Shown piece after piece: positions 3,639 to 20,000 of a stretch of 20,000 bases of DNA (its first letter is position 1; each line of letters begins with the position of its first letter). The DNA is from an uncultured virus (IMG/VR IMGVR_UViG_3300042887_005898) (lineage: Duplodnaviria; Heunggongvirae; Uroviricota; Caudoviricetes). The notes under the pieces are model-generated. The model was not told the DNA's origin and ran no database searches. It saw nothing but the letters and a program-made list of their open reading frames with translations. The stretch lies in IMG/VR virus record IMGVR_UViG_3300042887_005898, one strand, 5' to 3'. The position numbers were made by a program, and so were the translations under genes.

Positions 3639-3651
3639 TAATATATATTTG
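3639..3651 (+). promoter_or_regulatory. overlapping TAATATATA motif and Bacteroidota -7 element (TATATTTG) upstream of leader 1
   Basis: TAATATATA 3639-3647; TATATTTG 3644-3651 fits TAnnTTTG. Confidence 0.6.
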
Positions 3652-3673
3652 TATAACTTAAAATAGAAAAAAA

Positions 3674-3748
3674 ATGAAAGTTGTTAATAACATATCAATC
3701 ATAGGGAACGGCACTATAGCGGGTGGCCTTCTTTTGCTGATTGGTTAA
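3674..3748 (+). CDS. putative attenuator leader peptide 1 (MKVVNNISIIGNGTIAGGLLLLIG, 24 aa)
   Basis: ATG after an A-rich tract; codons 7-18 are ATA TCA ATC ATA GGG AAC GGC ACT ATA GCG GGT GGC; the 3' end is complementary to the downstream terminator. Confidence 0.75.
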   Translation: MKVVNNISIIGNGTIAGGLLLLIG

Positions 3749-3776
3749 GTATTGACTCTTTCATTCAAGATACTTT

Positions 3777-3807
3777 AAACCCAATCAGTGATGATTGGGT
3801 TTTTTTT
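3777..3807 (+). terminator. intrinsic terminator (attenuator) before tRNA array 1
   Basis: AAACCCAATCA-GTGA-TGATTGGGTTT, perfect 11 bp stem with GNRA loop, T8 at 3800-3807; 5' arm alternatively pairs with CTGATTGG at 3737-3744. Confidence 0.88.
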
Positions 3808-3816
3808 ATTTTATAT

Positions 3817-3890
3817 TGGTGAGTAGCTTAAACGGTAGAAGCACCTGTCTTATACACAGGAGAAAGTGGGATCGTTACCCACCTCACCAA
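3817..3890 (+). tRNA. tRNA-Ile(UAU)
   Basis: Acceptor TGGTGAG/CTCACCA; anticodon arm CCTGT-CT TAT AC-ACAGG; T-arm GTGGG-ATCGTTA-CCCAC. Confidence 0.9.
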
Positions 3891-3897
3891 CTAAACT

Positions 3898-3970
3898 GCA
3901 GAAGTGGTGTTAATGGTTAGCATGTGAGACTTCCACTCTCAAGGTGCCAGTTCGAATCTGGTCTTCTGCT
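3898..3970 (+). tRNA. tRNA-Gly(UCC)
   Basis: Acceptor GCAGAAG/CTTCTGC, U73; TGAGA-CT TCC AC-TCTCA; TTCGAAT T-loop. Confidence 0.93.
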
Positions 3971-3974
3971 CAAT

Positions 3975-4047
3975 GCGAGAGTAGCTCAATAGGTAGAGTA
4001 CCACCTTGCCAAGGTGGATGTTGCCGGATCGTACCCGGTCTCTCGCT
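3975..4047 (+). tRNA. tRNA-Gly(GCC)
   Basis: Acceptor GCGAGAG/CTCTCGC, U73; CCACC-TT GCC AA-GGTGG; T-loop ATCGTAC. Confidence 0.92.
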
Positions 4048-4060
4048 CTTTATAAATAAT

Positions 4061-4134
4061 GGGTCATTGGTGAAGCTGGCTATCACACAAGATTTGCAAT
4101 CTTGAGTCACGAGTTCGAAGCTCGTATGTATCCA
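4061..4134 (+). tRNA. tRNA-Ala(UGC), acceptor stem with a 1 nt bulge
   Basis: CAAGA-TT TGC AA-TCTTG; T-arm ACGAG-TTCGAAG-CTCGT; GGGTCAT pairs with ATG(T)ATCC and keeps G3:U70 and A73. Confidence 0.82.
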
Positions 4135-7068: not shown

Positions 7069-7094
7069 AAATTAACATTTAAGAAAATATAACT

Positions 7095-7150
7095 TATATT
7101 TGTAAAATAAATCGAAAAATACAAAACAAGGTAAGAATTTTTAATATATA
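7095..7150 (+). promoter_or_regulatory. tandem promoter elements upstream of leader 2
   Basis: TATATTTG at 7095-7102 and TAATATATA at 7142-7150; same layout as 19817-19890. Confidence 0.65.
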
Positions 7151-7157
7151 ATAAACA

Positions 7158-7265
7158 ATGAAAACAATGAATCTAAATATGACAAATTTGAATCTCACGG
7201 TGGTGAATACATTATGTATTAGAACCATGAGGTCGGGTATTGCCAAATTTAGAATTGTCTCATAA
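7158..7265 (+). CDS. putative attenuator leader peptide 2 (MKTMNLNMTNLNLTVVNTLCIRTMRSGIAKFRIVS, 35 aa)
   Basis: 20 of the first 25 codons encode M/T/N/V/C/I/R, the seven amino acids of array 2; AGGTCGGGT at 7230-7238 is complementary to the terminator 5' arm. Confidence 0.8.
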   Translation: MKTMNLNMTNLNLTVVNTLCIRTMRSGIAKFRIVS

Positions 7266-7292
7266 CATAGAGAATTAAGTCTAAAGATACAC

Positions 7293-7324
7293 AAACCCGA
7301 CCTTGAAAAAGAGTCGGGTTTTTT
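7293..7324 (+). terminator. intrinsic terminator (attenuator) before tRNA array 2
   Basis: AAACCCGAC-CTT-GAAA-AAG-(A)-GTCGGGTTT followed by a T-run. Confidence 0.88.
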
Positions 7325-7342: not shown

Positions 7343-7415
7343 GGTTCCTTCATCTAACTGGAAAAGATATCTCTCTTCTAAAGAGATTATAGAGGTTCGA
7401 ATCCTCTAGGAACTA
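7343..7415 (+). tRNA. tRNA-Arg(UCU)
   Basis: GGTTCCT/AGGAACT; TCTCT-CT TCT AA-AGAGA; AGAGG-TTCGAAT-CCTCT. Confidence 0.9.
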
Positions 7416-7423
7416 CTAAAAAT

Positions 7424-7496
7424 TGACCAGAAGCTAGTACGGTACAGCGGCGGTTTGTTAAACCGAGGATAGTGGGATCGTTACCCACCTGGTAAG
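7424..7496 (+). tRNA. tRNA-Asn(GUU)
   Basis: TGACCAG/CTGGTAA (one mismatch), G73; CGGT-TT GTT AA-ACCG; T-arm GTGGG-ATCGTTA-CCCAC. Confidence 0.82.
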
Positions 7497-7503
7497 CTAA
7501 AAT

Positions 7504-7586
7504 GTACAGATGGTAGAGTGGCGAATACAACAGCCTGCAAAACTGTAGTCGAAAGACCGTCGGGGGTTCGAGTCCCTCTCTGTACT
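7504..7586 (+). tRNA. tRNA-Cys(GCA) with a long variable arm
   Basis: GTACAGA/TCTGTAC, U73; ACAGC-CT GCA AA-ACTGT; variable hairpin GTC-GAAA-GAC; TTCGAGT T-loop. Confidence 0.82.
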
Positions 7587-7592
7587 CAAAAT

Positions 7593-7665
7593 AGTCCTGT
7601 AGCTCAATCGGGGGAGCGCCACTCTTACATAGTGGAGGAAGTCGGATCGTAACCGACCGGGACTA
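7593..7665 (+). tRNA. tRNA-Val(UAC)
   Basis: AGTCCTG/CGGGACT; CCACT-CT TAC AT-AGTGG; GTCGG-ATCGTAA-CCGAC. Confidence 0.9.
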
Positions 7666-7672
7666 CTAAAAT

Positions 7673-7745
7673 TGTCAGTTAGCTCATTTGGTAGAGCACT
7701 TGTCTGATACACAAGAGGTGCCGGGATCGTAACCCGGACTGACAA
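7673..7745 (+). tRNA. tRNA-Ile(GAU)
   Basis: TGTCAGT/ACTGACA; CTTGT-CT GAT AC-ACAAG; CCGGG-ATCGTAA-CCCGG. Confidence 0.9.
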
Positions 7746-7751
7746 CTTAAT

Positions 7752-7825
7752 GCATTCTTCGTATAGTTGGTCTATTACTCTGGATTTGTAACCCAGAAAC
7801 GCCAGTTCGAATCTGGCAGAATGCT
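7752..7825 (+). tRNA. tRNA-Thr(UGU)
   Basis: GCATTCT/AGAATGC; CTGGA-TT TGT AA-CCCAG; GCCAG-TTCGAAT-CTGGC. Confidence 0.88.
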
Positions 7826-7836
7826 CTAATCAAAAT

Positions 7837-7908
7837 AGCGATATAGTGTAAAGGTTAGCTCACTTGGCTCATATCCTTGAGGATCAGGTTCGATTCCTGA
7901 TATCGCTA
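7837..7908 (+). tRNA. tRNA with CAU anticodon (Met most likely), weak anticodon stem
   Basis: AGCGATA/TATCGCT; CTTGG-CT CAT AT-CCTTG has two T-T mismatches; TCAGG-TTCGATT-CCTGA. Confidence 0.72.
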
Positions 7909-7987
7909 CAATATTATCTCAGAGTTAATAATGTGTCATGTTTTTTTATAATCTACATGTTTTTTCTTATAGAAAAATATATAAATT

Positions 7988-8716: not shown

Positions 8717-9675
8717 AAATATTATATGGTGTACAAGGAACAGGTAATGGTCACATCACTCGTTCAATAAAAATGATTACTACTCTAAAGAGTATGGGAT
8801 TCGAAGTTGATACTTTAGTTTCAGGTAGTAATTATCAAATCAATCTTCCTTTTGAATGTAAATTTAATTTTAAGGGTTTTAATTTTTCTTTTAATAAAGA
8901 TGGTAGTATAAATAAATTTAATACATTAATAGAAAATGACTTTTATCAATTCTTAAAAGATACTAAAATTGATTTGAAACAATATGATACTCTAATTACA
9001 GATTTTGAACCAATTTTAGCATGGTCGGCAAAGTTTAAAGAACGAGAGATATGGGGTATAGGAAATCAATATTCTTTTTTATCAAAGAATTCTCCAAGAC
9101 CTACAAAAAAAGATTTAATTGGTGAGACTGTTCTAAAATGGATGGCACCTGTAACAAACCCAATAGGTATTCATTTTCAAAGATATGACGATTTTATCGA
9201 ATTGCCGATAATAAGAGATGATATCATTTATGGTAAACTAGAAGATTTTGGTCACTATACTGTTTATCTACCGAATGTTAATTTGAAAGAATTAGTTAAT
9301 GAACTTAATAGTTTTACTAAAAATAGATTTCATATATTTAGTAACACATACTACTATAATACTGAATATAGAAATTGTAGAATATATCCTTTAGATAAAT
9401 TTATGTTTCAGAAAAGTTTTTTGACATCTACCGGCGTGATAACAACTGGTGGTTTTCAAACAACATCTGAGTCACTATATTGTGGTAAAAAATTACTAGT
9501 AATACCAATAAACAATCAATATGAACAAATGTGTAATGGTGAGTCTCTTAGTAGATTAGGTATCAAAGTTGGTCAGTTATCAGATATAGGGAATTTTCTA
9601 ACTTCATGTAAAAATGTTAAATTAACTTGGGAAGATCCTACGAATAAAATAATATCAATGATTACTAAAAGTTAA
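8713..9675 (+). CDS. GT-B glycosyltransferase (MJ1255/VC2487-like family)
   Basis: MKILYGVQGTGNGHITRS, ITDFEP, GGFQTTSESLYCGKKLLVIP..QYEQ..N; ATGA overlap with the upstream gene. Confidence 0.87.
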   Translation: MKILYGVQGTGNGHITRSIKMITTLKSMGFEVDTLVSGSNYQINLPFECKFNFKGFNFSFNKDGSINKFNTLIENDFYQFLKDTKIDLKQYDTLITDFEPILAWSAKFKEREIWGIGNQYSFLSKNSPRPTKKDLIGETVLKWMAPVTNPIGIHFQRYDDFIELPIIRDDIIYGKLEDFGHYTVYLPNVNLKELVNELNSFTKNRFHIFSNTYYYNTEYRNCRIYPLDKFMFQKSFLTSTGVITTGGFQTTSESLYCGKKLLVIPINNQYEQMCNGESLSRLGIKVGQLSDIGNFLTSCKNVKLTWEDPTNKIISMITKS

Positions 9676-12457
9676 ATTTAGCAGACAGAGTAATAGTTTG
9701 ACCAAATTGAACTTTTTGCCAATCGTTATCACCTAAATTAAATCTTTGATTATTATTCAAATCCTGAAAATAAATCAAATCCTGTGCTAAAATATCTTTA
9801 ATATTTAATTTTAACTCACAATTCTTAATTTTCTTTGATATTTGAAAATCTAAGACATGTCTTTCATTCTCCCATACACTTGGCTCTTGTACATTACCAA
9901 CTATATAAATTCTTGGACCAACTATATTATAAGAAATATTCGTTGAAAAGGTATTATCAGTATTATTCCAGTATAATCCAGTGTTAAAAACATAAGGTGA
10001 TTGTCCTTGTAGTGGTCTATTACCACCAGAACCGATTACTTCATCCATCATCACATTAGATTTTATAAATGCTAAATTTGAATTTATTGATAGGTTTTTA
10101 TAAATTTTTGATTTAATATCGATTTCAACACCAATGTTTTTTGCTTTATATACATTGTCATAATAAAGCTCTGGTGAACCAGATGTTCCTGTTCTATTAA
10201 TTATTTCTATCGGATTTATGAATTCTTTATAGAAACCAGAAACAGAGAATACTTGATTATTTGATGGGTAATACTCAAATCTCAAATCATAATTGTTTAT
10301 TATTGTTCTTTTTAGATAAGGATTTCCAGAAGTGATATTATCTTGTATGAAGTTATAAAAACTAAAAGGAGCTAGCTCTCTAAATTCTGGACGCGAAACC
10401 GTTTTTGAGTAGCTAGTTCTAACTTTAAATTTGTCGACATTAAAACTCAGATTAATACTTGGTAATAAATCTACAACTGTAGAATCAATTGTCTTTTTTA
10501 AGTTACTACCAAACTCAATATAGTTAAACCTTTGATTGTATGATTCAATTCGTAATCCAACATTTAAATTTACATTTTTAGTTTTGGTATCTATCATCAA
10601 ATAACCAGCATTTAATGTGGAATTAGCATCATAACTATCATCTACATTTGTTGACTCATCTAATTTGAATCCGCCTTGACCATTTTGAAGTAGTCCCATA
10701 TTTTCTATTGAAAAGATCTCATCTGTGTTTAATAGTAATAGTTCGCTATTGAATGTACTTCCAGTTGGTCGATATTGAGAGAATCCAAAGTTCCTGCTTG
10801 TAAAGTCTCTATTTCTATATTGAAAGAAGTAACCTGATTTAATTTCGCTTTTAATTTGACTTATTTCTAAATCTTTTGCATAATCTACTCTACCACCATA
10901 AACTTTTTCATTACTCTTAGACCAAAACATATTACCAGCAGCAGTTGGTATTGTACCATTAGTCTGAATTACTGCAACATACTCTTCATTAGGATCATTT
11001 TCTAAAAGTGAATATTTTCTATAAACAATTCTTCTTAGGTTTGGTATTTCTCTCTTAATATCACTGTGATTTATAGACCATTCAATTTTTGATTTGCTGA
11101 ACTCATGATTTCCTATTAATTGTTGTGTTAGTAGATTATTTTGAGTGTACCATAAGTTGGTTGACTTCTCCCACTGATGTGGATCATTATCCATTTCTCT
11201 TACACCATATCTTTTATTCACTTTGTCTTCAGAATTGATAGAATATAAGTTTTTGAACTTAATTGAGTTTTTATCATTGATTTTGAATTTGAAGTTTAAT
11301 AAACCAGTATTTAGAACATTTTGAGTAAATACTGAATCTCTTAGAATCATTTTTGTGATCACTTCGGTTTCTGATTCTTCAAATTCTTTTCTAACTATAT
11401 TATTTTGATTGTAGTTCAATTGATAATTATAATTGAAAACAAACCCAAATGAAGATTTATCTTTTCTTATCTTCCAGTTTCTACCAAATCCGAATTGTAA
11501 ATTCTGATTTAATGGTGACTTTATGTTTTTAGTAGACCAATCATTTTTTATTAATTTTGATAATTCTGCTTTTTCATTTTTGTTTAAATCTGAAAATTCT
11601 TCTGTACTTGGTAATCCGTTTGGTAATGATCTATAATCAGTTCCAAACCCAATAAAGTCACCTTTTGAACAATTATAAGTGTTGAAATTTCTAAAAGTAG
11701 AAATTGTATTGTATGACTGACCAATTTGAACATAAGAAAAATCATTATCCTTTATATCTTGTGTATTGATATTAATAATTCCTCCAGCAAACTCACCTGG
11801 TAGATCTGATGATGCTGTCTTCTGAATAAGAATATTATCTATCATATTTGAGGAAAATATATCAAATGAAAATGCTCTTTTATCACTTTCTGAACTCGGT
11901 AGAGGCGAACCATTAAGTAAACCAAAGTTGTATCTATCATTTAGACCTCTTATAATGACAAATTTGTTGTCTTGTATGGAAGCACCACTTATTCTTTTTA
12001 ATACATCTGAAGCTTTTGAATCAGGAGTTTTCTTGAATATTTCTGATGTTGTTCCGTCTACGACAGAACTGGAGTTCTTTTGTGTTAGTATCAAATCAAC
12101 TTGTGTGTCTTTGTCTCTAGTCGCGAAAATTTTGAGTTCTTTTGAGTCTGTTTTATCATCTCTTTTCATTTTGATGACTATTGAACCAGTCGGACTAGAT
12201 TCAACGATATTCACTTTGACAGAGTAGTCTAAGTAGGTGACATATCTAATTTCAATTTCATGCGATCCAGTCGGTAAAATTAGTTCAAATTTACCATCAA
12301 TATCCGAGACTGTTCCAGTGTTTAGTTTAGGACAATATACAACTGCACCAATAAGTGACTCGTTTGAGGTTGAGTCACTTATTGTACCAATCAATTTTGC
12401 CTGACTTAGTAGTTGTGTAGAAACTAAAATTAAAAAAGACAATAAAACTGACCTCAT
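9665..12457 (-). CDS. TonB-dependent outer-membrane receptor with N-terminal carboxypeptidase-regulatory-like domain
   Basis: Signal peptide; G..SDIDGKF; plug motif IIRGLNDRYN; SRPEFRELAPF; DLRFEYYP; RPLQGQSPY; terminal aromatic residue (KFNF). Confidence 0.93.
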   Translation of the reverse strand: MRSVLLSFLILVSTQLLSQAKLIGTISDSTSNESLIGAVVYCPKLNTGTVSDIDGKFELILPTGSHEIEIRYVTYLDYSVKVNIVESSPTGSIVIKMKRDDKTDSKELKIFATRDKDTQVDLILTQKNSSSVVDGTTSEIFKKTPDSKASDVLKRISGASIQDNKFVIIRGLNDRYNFGLLNGSPLPSSESDKRAFSFDIFSSNMIDNILIQKTASSDLPGEFAGGIININTQDIKDNDFSYVQIGQSYNTISTFRNFNTYNCSKGDFIGFGTDYRSLPNGLPSTEEFSDLNKNEKAELSKLIKNDWSTKNIKSPLNQNLQFGFGRNWKIRKDKSSFGFVFNYNYQLNYNQNNIVRKEFEESETEVITKMILRDSVFTQNVLNTGLLNFKFKINDKNSIKFKNLYSINSEDKVNKRYGVREMDNDPHQWEKSTNLWYTQNNLLTQQLIGNHEFSKSKIEWSINHSDIKREIPNLRRIVYRKYSLLENDPNEEYVAVIQTNGTIPTAAGNMFWSKSNEKVYGGRVDYAKDLEISQIKSEIKSGYFFQYRNRDFTSRNFGFSQYRPTGSTFNSELLLLNTDEIFSIENMGLLQNGQGGFKLDESTNVDDSYDANSTLNAGYLMIDTKTKNVNLNVGLRIESYNQRFNYIEFGSNLKKTIDSTVVDLLPSINLSFNVDKFKVRTSYSKTVSRPEFRELAPFSFYNFIQDNITSGNPYLKRTIINNYDLRFEYYPSNNQVFSVSGFYKEFINPIEIINRTGTSGSPELYYDNVYKAKNIGVEIDIKSKIYKNLSINSNLAFIKSNVMMDEVIGSGGNRPLQGQSPYVFNTGLYWNNTDNTFSTNISYNIVGPRIYIVGNVQEPSVWENERHVLDFQISKKIKNCELKLNIKDILAQDLIYFQDLNNNQRFNLGDNDWQKVQFGQTITLSAKFNF

Positions 12458-14016
12458 TGTTTAATTATATTTTTAAAAACTTTTTCATTTACTTGAACAG
12501 TGTAAATACCATAGTCTAAACTTGATAAGTTTATTTCTGTACTATTAAAACCTTTATTTATATTTACAATCTGACCTAAGTGATTATAAACCTTCACAAT
12601 TATCGGACCATCTAATTTTATGTTTACAACTCCTAATGTTGGATTAGGATAAATAATCAAACTTTGGTCTAAATCATTATAAACATTATTAATTAATCCC
12701 AATTTTGAATGTGTAAAGTCAGCATTATTTGATACAATTGAATTTTCGTTAAGTCTAGCATCTGGATTAGAATTAAATATATCTACCCAATTAATTTCTG
12801 AAACAGACATTATTGAATCATTTTGATTAGTGGAAAAGAATTCATAGAAACTCGCTAGTGAAGTCACACAATTATTTGGTATGTTTGATAAAACATTATT
12901 TGAAAAAACAAGAGAACCGTTAGTTACATTAGATTCTGTAGCTGTTCCTTCAATTGATAACCCTTTTTCCCAACCTGTCACTAAAGAATTAAAAACTGAG
13001 ATAGAAGAATTTCTTCTGATTCTAAAAGCTTTTTCAAATTTTTCACCAACAGGTAAAACTTGAGATCCATCACCAAGTGGACCAACTATTGTAAAATTTG
13101 AAAACACGGCCGCGGTTTGTGGTAAATTAGATGAACCGGTTGCATCATTATCACTTTCAAAACAGTTTGAATCACCAGGAGCATCGTATCTTGTGTTGTC
13201 ACGAATTGCTAATCCAAACTGAACATTACCTCTATATCCAAAGTCTGTATCAAAGTCATCATCGATACCTTTGTAGGCGATTAAGTGTTTACAGTTCACA
13301 GTACCACCAAACCACTCAAATGAGTCATCACCTGAAAATGATACTTGTACAAAATCAATTATAGTCAATGAACCGACTGAACCAAAAGTAATACCATTTA
13401 TTTCTTTATTTGGCTCAAGTGGAATGCCACCAAATTCAACTCTAACATATCTTAAAATACCTGAGTTATCAGAATCATCACTACCACCATATTGTGTGTT
13501 AGAAGATGGTGTTATTCCCTCAATGTTTGCGAATCCTCCTGGTTGATTATTAACTGCTTTACCTAAAATAACCAATCCTCCCCAATCTCCTTCAGCTCTT
13601 AAACCGATCTCTTCGTTTGATGTGAAAATAATTGGTTGATCTTGTGTTCCGTCAGCGATTATTTTTGAACCTTTAGTTATGATAAGAGTTCCTTGTGTTG
13701 AGTAATCACCTCTTATGATTGTTCCAGGCAGAATTGTTAGTGTTGCATTATTTGTTACATATACTTTATTTTGCAAAAGTATTACACCACTTAATGTAGT
13801 ATTACTGGTAATGTCATTTGATAATACAGTATTTGTTTGTGGATAATCTGTATTTTCTGGATCAAAATTAGACCAACCAGATGTCCAGTTAGTAGCAGGA
13901 GTATTATCTGTTACCGGAAATGCACCTTTGTAAGAAGTTTGATCCCAGAAGGAATTTTGGCAAATTACTAAATTAGTAAAAGCTAAAAAAAGAATTAAAA
14001 TTGATAATCTTTTCAT
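12454..14016 (-). CDS. secreted beta-helix-like protein with a type IX secretion (T9SS type A) C-terminal sorting domain
   Basis: Signal peptide from MKRLSIL (14016); PIIFTS..GDWGGLVILG..DNSGILRYVRVEFGG..GDDSFEWFGGTVN; C-terminal IYPNP...YNHLGQ...GIYTVQV...KNIIKQ. Confidence 0.87.
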   Translation of the reverse strand: MKRLSILILFLAFTNLVICQNSFWDQTSYKGAFPVTDNTPATNWTSGWSNFDPENTDYPQTNTVLSNDITSNTTLSGVILLQNKVYVTNNATLTILPGTIIRGDYSTQGTLIITKGSKIIADGTQDQPIIFTSNEEIGLRAEGDWGGLVILGKAVNNQPGGFANIEGITPSSNTQYGGSDDSDNSGILRYVRVEFGGIPLEPNKEINGITFGSVGSLTIIDFVQVSFSGDDSFEWFGGTVNCKHLIAYKGIDDDFDTDFGYRGNVQFGLAIRDNTRYDAPGDSNCFESDNDATGSSNLPQTAAVFSNFTIVGPLGDGSQVLPVGEKFEKAFRIRRNSSISVFNSLVTGWEKGLSIEGTATESNVTNGSLVFSNNVLSNIPNNCVTSLASFYEFFSTNQNDSIMSVSEINWVDIFNSNPDARLNENSIVSNNADFTHSKLGLINNVYNDLDQSLIIYPNPTLGVVNIKLDGPIIVKVYNHLGQIVNINKGFNSTEINLSSLDYGIYTVQVNEKVFKNIIKQ

Positions 14017-14170
14017 AAATAAAGTTTTTTTTTCAACTTTATATATCATCCAGAAATCAAAAGGAACAGTTAATATTTTGATTATTACATCGAAATAATC
14101 ATGTAAAATCAGACCAATAAAGGCACTCAGTAATATATTAAGAAACTGCTATCAATCAGTAAACTCAGTG

Positions 14171-16724: not shown

Positions 16725-17957
16725 ATGAATATAAAAGAAACTTTTTTAAGTCTTACTACTCGAACTTACCCACACGGAACTGAACAAGATTTGTTCCACC
16801 TACTTCCACAAGATTTAGAAGTTGATGATTTCGGAAACCTTTACAAGCAAATCGGTGATAATCCTTCTACTATGTTTGCTTGTCACTTAGATACAGCCAC
16901 TTCAGCAAGAACTACAATTAAACATACTTTTGACGGTAATCTCATCAAAAGTGATGGTACTACAATCTTAGGTGCTGATGATAAAGCCGGTGTTACAATA
17001 CTACTTAATATGATTGAGAATAATATTCCAGGTCTTTATTACTTTTTCTTAGGAGAAGAAGTTGGATGTCAAGGATCTAAGAAAGTTGCTCAACTACACA
17101 AAGACAAACCTTTAGAAAATATTAAAAAAGTAATTTCCTTTGATAGGCGAGGAACTACTTCAATCATTACGCACCAATGTTCTAGTAGATGTTGTTCAGA
17201 TAACTTCGGAAATGCTTTGGCATCTGAATTAAATAGAACAGGTCTTGATGTAGAAGGATTTGACGAAATTGTTTTTGACTATAAGAACGATCCAACAGGA
17301 TTATATACAGACTCTGCACAGTTTACTAAAATTTATCCAGAATGTACAAACATTTCCGTTGGTTATAGAAATGAACATACTTTTGACGAATTTCAAGATA
17401 TCAAACACTTAGAGAAGCTTGCTCAAGCTGTACTTAAAGTTGATTGGGAAAATCTACCAGTTGAAAGAGATCCTTCAAAAGTTGATTATTCATATGGTTA
17501 TGATAACTGGGATGATTATTACAACTATCCAAGTTACAGACCTACTTATAAAGGTGGTACAACAACTACTAATTATCAAAGTGCTTTCGCTACAAAAGGA
17601 TATGATGAAAACATTTGGTTCTTAGATAATGAACACGAAAACTATGTTTCTTGTGTTAAAACAAATACTTACACCAAAAAGGTTTCTAAAACTGATTTGA
17701 GTAAATCAAGAATCAATTTTGAAACAGACCTTATCGGGCAATTTTTAATGTCACTAGATGTTAATTATGAATCATTAAAATGGGATGGATTCAATCTTAC
17801 AGTAAGGTACCGATTAAGTGCAGGTGGACATGTAACTGAATGTGATAGAAATGAATTGTCTGAGTTTTTACCTGAACTAGATTTCTGGAAAAAACATAAT
17901 GAAGAAGAAACTAAAAAAGAATATACCAAAGAAACTTATAAAAACTTTTTTGACTGA
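16725..17957 (+). CDS. M28/M20-family zinc peptidase-like protein
   Basis: [39 protein letters not shown]; start moved to MNIKETF at 16725, downstream of a TATCTTTG element. Confidence 0.82.
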
Positions 17958-18763
17958 TGGAAATTGAGAAGATCGTTAGAGAAATTAAAAAGAAGAATTC
18001 TTTTCTATGTGTTGGACTAGATAGCGATATATCTAAAATACCTTCACATTTCAAACAATCTTCTCTTCCTTTATTTGAGTTCAATAAATTTATTATTGAG
18101 TCAACACATGAATATTGTATTGCTTATAAAATAAATACAGCGTTCTATGAGTCAAGAGGTGTAACTGGTTGGAAAGAATTAGAATCAACGATAAGTTATT
18201 TAAACGAAAAACATCCGGATCACTTTACGATTGCAGACGCTAAAAGAGGTGACATAGGTAATACATCAAAGATGTATGGTGAAACATTTTTTAATCACAT
18301 GAAATTCGATTCTATTACTGTTTCTCCTTATATGGGTTATGATAGTGTTTCTCCTTTTTTAGAATATAAAGATAAATGGACAATACTATTGGCTCTTACA
18401 TCTAATATTGGATCAAATGACTTTCAAAAACAAATTTCAGATAATCAATTTCTTTTCGTAAAGGTTTTGGAGACATCTAAAAATTGGTCAGATAATATAA
18501 TGTGGGTTGTTGGTGCTACTAATTCTGATTTACTCAGAAAAGTAAGAGAGATTATTCCTAATGGATTTATATTAGTTCCAGGTGTTGGGTTTCAAGGTGG
18601 ATCTTTGGATGAAGTTGTAAAATACGGAATGAATTCTAACTGTGGTTTAATTGTAAATTCTTCTCGTAATATTATTTATTCCTCTGACCCTAAGTCAGAG
18701 GCACAAAAAATTCAAAAAGAAATGGAAATTCATCTAAAAACTACATTCCAACAAAGTCTCTAA
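17957..18763 (+). CDS. pyrF: orotidine-5'-phosphate decarboxylase (Bacteroidota type)
   Basis: [60 protein letters not shown]. Confidence 0.95.
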
Positions 18764-19816: not shown

Positions 19817-19890
19817 TTTGGTGAATATAAAACTATAACATATATTTGCACTATAATAATCGAAAAGAGACAAAAGCTTTTTAATATATA
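19817..19890 (+). promoter_or_regulatory. Bacteroidota promoter (TTTG-N20-TATATTTG) followed by TAATATATA, upstream of leader 3
   Basis: TTTG 19817-19820, TATATTTG 19841-19848, TAATATATA 19882-19890. Confidence 0.75.
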
Positions 19891-19895
19891 AAGAA

Positions 19896-20000
19896 ATGAA
19901 AAACTTAAACAACATATTTGTTAACCAACCGCAACCACAAGTTGTAGTCGATCAGGATACTGATACGATGTTGGCTAACTATGTATTTAAGTTACGATAA
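19896..20000 (+). CDS. putative attenuator leader peptide 3 (MKNLNNIFVNQPQPQVVVDQDTDTMLANYVFKLR, 34 aa)
   Basis: Short ORF ending TAA at 19998-20000; same upstream architecture as leader 2; clustered Q/P/V/D/T codons. Downstream context is outside the window. Confidence 0.6.
   Translation: MKNLNNIFVNQPQPQVVVDQDTDTMLANYVFKLR

Follow-up and report, generated by a model that had tools for sequence, protein, structure and literature searches.

The window and its genomic setting

The window analysed here is a stretch of 20,000 nt from an uncultured virus (IMG/VR record IMGVR_UViG_3300042887_005898) with a G+C content of 29%. It encodes a ribonucleotide reductase small subunit, a Hef-like homing endonuclease, two metallophosphoesterases, an SLT lysozyme-like protein and an AdoMet decarboxylase. 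In addition, it contains 11 tRNA genes organized in two arrays, each of which lies 10-19 nt past a terminator, the terminator in turn lying past a small open reading frame (ORF). We refer to these small ORFs as leader 1 and leader 2. A third candidate leader (leader 3), together with its promoter-like upstream region, occupies positions 19817-20000 at the very end of the window.

Among phages, the endonuclease finds its best relatives in uncultured huge phages (462-642 kb) and in Tenacibaculum jumbo phages, and near-identical copies of the whole stretch are present in lake and freshwater metagenomes from 14 studies. A megablast search of the phage collection returned no match. In our reading, the window belongs to a huge phage whose host is a freshwater member of the Bacteroidota; for the host, this reading leans on what we take to be the promoter consensus of that phylum. 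Several host-like genes are found amid the phage-like context (9665-14049 on the minus strand and 17957-18763 on the plus strand), among them genes for a TonB-dependent receptor and a protein with a type-9-secretion C-terminal domain, as well as pyrF. Two related records of 260-280 kb are classified as provirus in IMG/VR.

Leaders 1 and 2 and their tRNA arrays

Leader 1 and its terminator span positions 3674..3807 on the plus strand (ORF 3674-3748, MKVVNNISIIGNGTIAGGLLLLIG; terminator 3780-3807) and are followed on the same strand by array 1 (3817..4133), which consists of Ile(tat), Gly(tcc), Gly(gcc) and Ala(tgc) tRNA genes. Leader 2 and its terminator (7158..7324, plus strand) comprise an ORF of 35 codons (7158-7265, MKTMNLNMTNLNLTVVNTLCIRTMRSGIAKFRIVS) and a terminator at 7296-7324. 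The plus-strand array 2 behind them (7343..7909) codes for Arg(tct), Asn(gtt), Cys(gca), Val(tac), Ile(gat), Thr(tgt) and Met(cat) tRNAs. Residues that match the leader's own array make up 11 of 23 in leader 1 (4.3 expected) and 23 of 34 in leader 2 (11.3 expected).

The Asn(gtt) gene (7424-7497) was detected only by ARAGORN run with the options -i -ps, being missed both by default ARAGORN and at the Rfam gathering score. It has an unusual T-arm in common with tRNA-Ile(tat) at 3817-3891. A 20-mer from this T-arm occurs in 11 IMG/VR contigs, all of which have tRNA genes and eight of which are 113-501 kb long. Default ARAGORN also misses several tRNA-like genes at 261380-264410 of the IMG/VR contig G001 (locus L110), namely Ala(tgc), Trp(cca), a probable Tyr with a long insert and intron-bearing calls.

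Promoter-like layout and 5' UTR of leader 3

The Bacteroidota-type promoter consensus is TTTG/TAnnTTTG. Upstream of leader 3, on the plus strand, TTTG (19817..19820) is a candidate -33 element located 20 nt upstream of TATATTTG (19841..19848), a candidate -7 element, and the same arrangement precedes the homologous leaders described below. TATATTTG itself is also present before leader 1 (region 3645-3652), leader 2 (region 7094-7101) and homologous leaders elsewhere. It is followed in the 5' UTR, still on the plus strand, by two motifs common to leader 2 (19858..19875), namely AATCGAAAA (19858-19866) and ACAAAA (19870-19875), and then by the gene-start motif TTTTTAATATATA (19878..19890, plus strand), which lies 6 nt 5' of the ATG and is kept before the homologous leaders. 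The original prediction had pointed to a likeness with the upstream layout of leader 2, and the same order of motifs is indeed found there (7094-7160).

We asked how specific these motifs are. Allowing at most one mismatch, TTTAATATATA occurs 13 times in the window versus 4.46 expected. Most of them precede an ORF start, on either strand, by 5-30 nt, as in the case of the divergent neighbor gene coding for 351 residues; positions 204, 1923, 3637, 7140, 16413 (minus strand), 19801 (minus strand) and 19880 are among the sites. TTTAATATATA is a candidate promoter or gene-start signal of the phage. Part of the layout common to leaders 2 and 3 thus consists of a motif found at gene starts in general, so that their likeness, though real, is not entirely specific to leaders. 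The search of viral contigs for TATATTTG and AATCGAAAA separated by 6-10 nt produced 97 matches at a chance-like level, only one of which had a tRNA downstream, and that one far off. Therefore, this pair of motifs alone is not diagnostic.

Short contigs from the metagenome runs X1 and X3 carry variants of the leader region (19863-20000) joined to a different promoter-like upstream sequence. These variants may represent other strains, or other leader copies with a common 5' UTR.

The leader 3 ORF and its homologs

The leader 3 ORF (19896..20000, plus strand) consists of 34 codons starting with the ATG at 19896, translates into MKNLNNIFVNQPQPQVVVDQDTDTMLANYVFKLR and ends with TAA. It does not run off the window, as the stop codon occupies the last three bases, 19998-20000. 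The block QPQPQVVVDQDTDTM with mixed synonymous codons (CAA/CAG, CCG/CCA, GTT/GTA/GTC, ACT/ACG) is present just as originally described. The corresponding regulatory block (19926..19964, plus strand) includes four Gln, two Pro and three Asp codons interleaved with three Val codons and one Thr codon, and in homologs the Pro, Gln and Asp residues are kept while their synonymous forms vary. Further downstream on the plus strand lies GGCTAACT (19973..19980), hereafter region 2, the upstream strand of a proposed antiterminator; its complement is the terminator 5' arm seen in L001, a related metagenome contig.

Homologous ORFs of 30-35 codons were identified in nine other contigs and in L001. In ten homologous copies the frame is kept, alignment gaps within the coding part are all multiples of three and the ATGAAA start is conserved, which argues against a chance ORF. 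The homolog alignment also reveals no change at the synonymous sites of region 2, in contrast to the Pro and Gln codons, which vary. The search for the Gln/Pro codon pattern returned the G001 contig and two chance matches inside genes. Among the viral contigs searched, the exact leader 3 sequence had no match; among the genome contigs searched, neither a relative of the protein adjoining leader 3 nor a match to the terminator pattern was found.

The region downstream of leader 3 in related contigs

The window ends at the stop codon of leader 3, and we infer the terminator and the array behind it from related contigs. Logan contigs from three runs span the whole stretch and end 123-201 nt past the end of the window, a break that fits repeated tRNA genes and proves nothing. 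L001, in which the neighboring protein is 97% identical, extends 68 nt past the stop codon before it ends. Within this extension there is an 11-bp stem that starts with GC pairing (+28 to +55 past the stop) and a T9 run ending at +64. The fold has an energy of -20.8 kcal/mol (z = -5.5), and none of 200 shuffled sequences folds as well. The terminator that had been predicted within roughly 100 nt is therefore found in L001, at +28 to +64.

The nine other contigs with homologous leaders are G001 (281 kb), LR756502.1 (642 kb), LR745206.1 (635 kb) and six IMG/VR contigs of 24-476 kb. We take LR756502.1 and LR745206.1, both uncultured huge-phage records, to stem from Al-Shayeb et al. 2020. In the relatives used to predict the tRNAs behind leader 3, the neighboring protein is only ~40% identical. 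The same terminator lies behind each of the nine homologous leaders; Pro(tgg) and Asp(gtc) tRNAs come next, 3-81 nt beyond its T-run (3-19 nt in eight loci). Gln tRNAs are also present in seven of the nine loci. From the terminator up to the Gln block or to where the locus ends, no Val, Thr or Met tRNA was found in any of the nine. Thus, of the tRNAs predicted behind leader 3, those for Pro and Asp (9/9) and Gln (7/9) stand when judged by its relatives, and those for Val, Thr and Met (0/9) do not. With no such tRNA behind any of the nine homologs, the Val, Thr and Met codons were dropped as regulatory codons.

In six of six loci in which the Gln tRNAs lie behind the Pro/Asp block, they have a second, poly-Gln leader and a terminator of their own. 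These leaders contain five to seven consecutive Gln codons and precede blocks of Gln tRNAs exclusively (L141, 37938-38046; L142, 35639-35750; in L144, L146, L147 and L148, upstream of the first Gln tRNA). The leader of L145, an IMG/VR contig of 108 kb, has one Gln codon left, and the fetched locus contains no Gln tRNA; leader and array appear to have changed together. By homology, the array behind leader 3 most likely comprises Pro(tgg) and Asp(gtc) tRNAs directly after the terminator, with Gln tRNAs located later, behind a poly-Gln leader.

The metagenome scan recovered only L001 and L002. In L002 the neighboring protein is 66% identical and there is neither a leader nor tRNAs, which means that the leader unit is not universal. 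Distant relatives of the neighboring protein, L003-L006, also came without tRNAs.

Codon match between leaders and arrays

To examine the relationship between leaders and arrays more broadly, we compiled, by mechanical criteria, units consisting of a hairpin with a T-run, a tRNA within 120-130 nt and an ORF ending at most 130 nt upstream. From the first set of 20 hairpins 14 were kept (three of the six dropped lay inside tRNA genes and three were weak and irregular), and all seven of the second set were kept, giving 21 units in total. Where several ORFs ended before the terminator, the leader was chosen by hand (win1, L107a, L111a, L111b, L114a and L142q). Intron-containing tRNA calls were left out of the array sets, and 230 long ORFs from the window and from G001 supplied the amino acid usage on which the expectation is based.

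With ORFs and array limits chosen after the arrays had been seen, which introduces bias, and with homologous units that are not independent of each other, the amino acids of the array exceeded expectation in all 21 leaders (binomial P < 0.05 in 13). Pooled over the 21 units, 241 of 574 leader residues matched the downstream tRNAs (119.9 expected); at the codon level, with wobble allowed, there were 222 matches versus 96.6 expected. When eight unrelated classes were each represented by one unit, the true assignment of leaders to arrays was the single best of 40,320 permutations, and the mean z-score was 3.2 for cognate and -0.07 for non-cognate pairs.

The match extends to isoacceptors. ATA accounts for 21 of 28 Ile codons in leaders of arrays with Ile(tat) only, versus none of five where the array has Ile(gat) only (Fisher P = 0.003). 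In the L112a leader, every Ser, Pro, Gln and Lys isoacceptor of its own array is represented by one codon. Other leaders mirror their arrays just as plainly: the one with MTTIRSHKHFSKSSKWF is followed by Phe-His-Trp-Lys-Arg-Ser-Ser-Ser tRNAs, YYYEAYEE by Glu-Tyr-Glu-Glu-Tyr tRNAs and MTTSFQQQQQQQINRTD by four Gln tRNAs. In the leader 3 class taken alone, matches amount to 9 versus 3.8 expected in G001Q (P = 0.009), 6 versus 3.0 in L142Q (P = 0.07) and 5 versus 3.3 in L141Q (P = 0.24). Upstream of the tRNA arrays L104, L105 and L113 there is no leader ORF or terminator, so that not all phage arrays are under such control.

Predicted antiterminator pairing and the modeled switch

In each unit a distal segment of the ORF is complementary to the 5' arm of the terminator. 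Compared with shuffled leaders, the duplex had a negative z-score in 21 of 21 units and reached -2 or below in 10; the leader 2 antiterminator has an energy of -16.5 kcal/mol (z = -5.5). The double-centered binding residual was -2.21 kcal/mol for cognate arms and +0.19 for non-cognate ones, a result that none of 5000 reassignments attained. Under the stricter control that considers just the first 7 nt of each arm, the signal is weak (mean rank 5.5 of 12 versus 6.5 expected; rank 1 in 4 of 21). In homologs of the Asn/Val/Cys/Thr class the terminators differ and the ORF segments differ to match (win2 versus G001B and L142B).

For the Pro/Asp/Gln class, we aligned region 2 with the 5' arm of the terminator in 10 sequences, in 7 of which the terminator is fixed by the search pattern, and found 80 of 80 cells to pair; sliding the partner by 1-3 columns reduced this to 0-55%. 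Five pairs of the 8-bp helix are invariant and three vary on one side only. As no pair has changed on both sides, the helix of this class represents conservation, not covariation. The conserved Val codons GTT GTA GTC resemble the terminator 5' arm, and from this similarity they may be a structural partner of region 2 rather than sensors.

We then modeled the ribosome as a 30-nt mask during folding of 22 units. The ribosome-free RNA formed the terminator with a probability of 0.97-1.00 in all of them. In equilibrium folding, a ribosome placed on the regulatory codons abolished the terminator in eight units, leader 3 not among them, while in the other 14, leader 3 included, terminator probability stayed at 0.9 or above at every ribosome position. 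Transcripts cut before the 3' arm of the terminator were modeled as well. In nearly all of the 22 units, the 5' arm was 60-90% paired when the ribosome was on early or regulatory codons and became free once it covered the distal part of the ORF. For leader 3 the pairing in these cut transcripts drops only from ~0.7 to ~0.5, so that its predicted switch is weak in silico.

Proposed mechanism and alternative explanations

What is established here is how the units are built and conserved, that leader codons match the anticodons of the arrays and that the segments are complementary. On these grounds, we consider it likely that a ribosome-mediated transcription attenuator heads a phage tRNA array here, with the leader 3 stretch supplying its promoter and leader ORF. 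The attenuator model of the original prediction draws support from the codon/anticodon statistics and, less firmly, from the predicted alternative pairing. According to this model, transcription would start behind TATATTTG, and a ribosome would translate the 34-codon leader. Slow decoding of the Gln, Pro and Asp codons would stall the ribosome upstream of region 2, leaving the latter free to base-pair with the terminator 5' arm; with this arm engaged, no terminator would form, and RNA polymerase would enter the tRNA genes. Under fast decoding, the ribosome would cover region 2 while the terminator is being synthesized, and transcription would stop. The phage's own tRNAs would in this way be supplied on demand. 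We think that the signal is the decoding supply in the infected cell, as affected by codon-usage mismatch or by tRNA loss.

It might be argued that the same architecture responds to amino acid starvation or to the general status of translation (ribosome availability, host shut-off), the codon match being a by-product. For a stalled ribosome, a missing tRNA is indistinguishable from an uncharged one, as is well established for trp and his attenuation. Moreover, the free RNA terminates in all 22 models, and so any loss of translation would also shut the arrays off. However, the content of leaders follows the isoacceptors of their own arrays, as illustrated by ATA as opposed to ATT/ATC and by the one codon per isoacceptor in L112a, and a general sensor would have no need for this. 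We consider such an input unlikely. The case for an ordinary small phage gene with its own terminator, next to an array served by a separate promoter, is weaker still. It would explain why the general gene-start motif precedes the leader 3 ORF as it does other genes, it agrees with the abundance of small ORFs in AT-rich DNA, and the modeled switch of leader 3 is weak. The likeness in amino acids would then have to come from coincidence or shared ancestry, yet the cognate pairing of leaders with arrays outperforms every other permutation (1/40,320), and it is region 2 that stays invariant at synonymous sites, the Pro and Gln codons being free to vary. Furthermore, in most units the first tRNA starts 3-21 nt after the terminator, which leaves no room for a separate array promoter. 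Taken together, these observations make an ordinary gene very improbable.

Finally, the genes under control have to do with tRNA, and a terminator is accompanied by a putative antiterminator, as would also be expected if the leader RNA sensed tRNA directly, in a T-box-like manner and without translation. No Rfam family matches positions 1-300 of L001 at E ≤ 1, however, and the hits in the window at the gathering score are to tRNA only. In addition, the leader is ~100 nt long and has many different codons instead of one specifier, and its reading frame is kept across indels. Direct sensing is thus the least probable of these explanations, and we give it hardly any weight. Ribosome-mediated attenuation is the reading we prefer.

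Relation to known regulatory systems

Leader-peptide attenuators are known for the trp, his, leu, thr, ilv and pheA operons and for pheST of enterobacteria. The units described here resemble them in having a short, putatively translated leader rich in the reporting codons, an intrinsic terminator before the regulated genes, a leader segment complementary to the 5' arm of the terminator, and termination as the predicted fate of untranslated RNA. The mixed Gln/Pro/Asp block is reminiscent of the multivalent thr and ilv leaders, and leaders with seven Gln codons recall the His run of hisL. Unlike in enterobacteria, the targets here are tRNA genes and not enzymes or a synthetase, and what is sensed would be decoding capacity, which the output directly restores. 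Also distinct is their occurrence as elements of huge phages, several per genome, each with a different set of codons and with candidate promoter motifs of the Bacteroidota type. None of the Rfam leader families (His, Trp, Thr and Leu leaders, etc.) matched in the window or in L001 1-300. T-box riboswitches likewise couple tRNA status to the choice between terminator and antiterminator. However, they bind uncharged tRNA directly, are ~200-300 nt long and untranslated, and have a single specifier codon and the conserved T-box motif; the units presented here have no match to their model.

Al-Shayeb et al. (2020, Nature 578:425) state in their main text that huge phages have up to 67 tRNAs per genome. 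In that main text the terms 'attenuat*', 'leader' and 'terminator' as well as 'LR756502' have no occurrences. Full-text searches of the literature, as far as it is accessible outside subscription journals, likewise returned no description of a leader peptide or an attenuator placed ahead of tRNA genes or of phage tRNA arrays. The proposed mechanism is of a known kind, whereas its target, tRNA genes, is new.

Implications for phage biology

The leaders bear on the question of why large phages have so many tRNA genes and when they put them to use. Should the leaders function in the proposed way, ribosome-mediated attenuation would extend to tRNA genes, and the tRNA supply of the phage would be set by demand and not be constitutive. 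Changing the codons of a leader should then change the shortage that induces its array, a prediction that can be tested with reporters. The leaders would also provide a label, readable from sequence, of the codons that the phage expects to be limiting in its host.

On balance, we lean towards a still broader reading, in which the tRNA genes of Bacteroidota huge phages, and those of one or more unrelated lineages of higher GC content (L112), form separately gated modules, each placed behind a translated strip of the codons read by its own isoacceptors. Such phages would gauge the decoding capacity of the host codon by codon and top up only what is short, including shortages caused by host anticodon nucleases, in which case the arrays would act as an inducible counter-defense.
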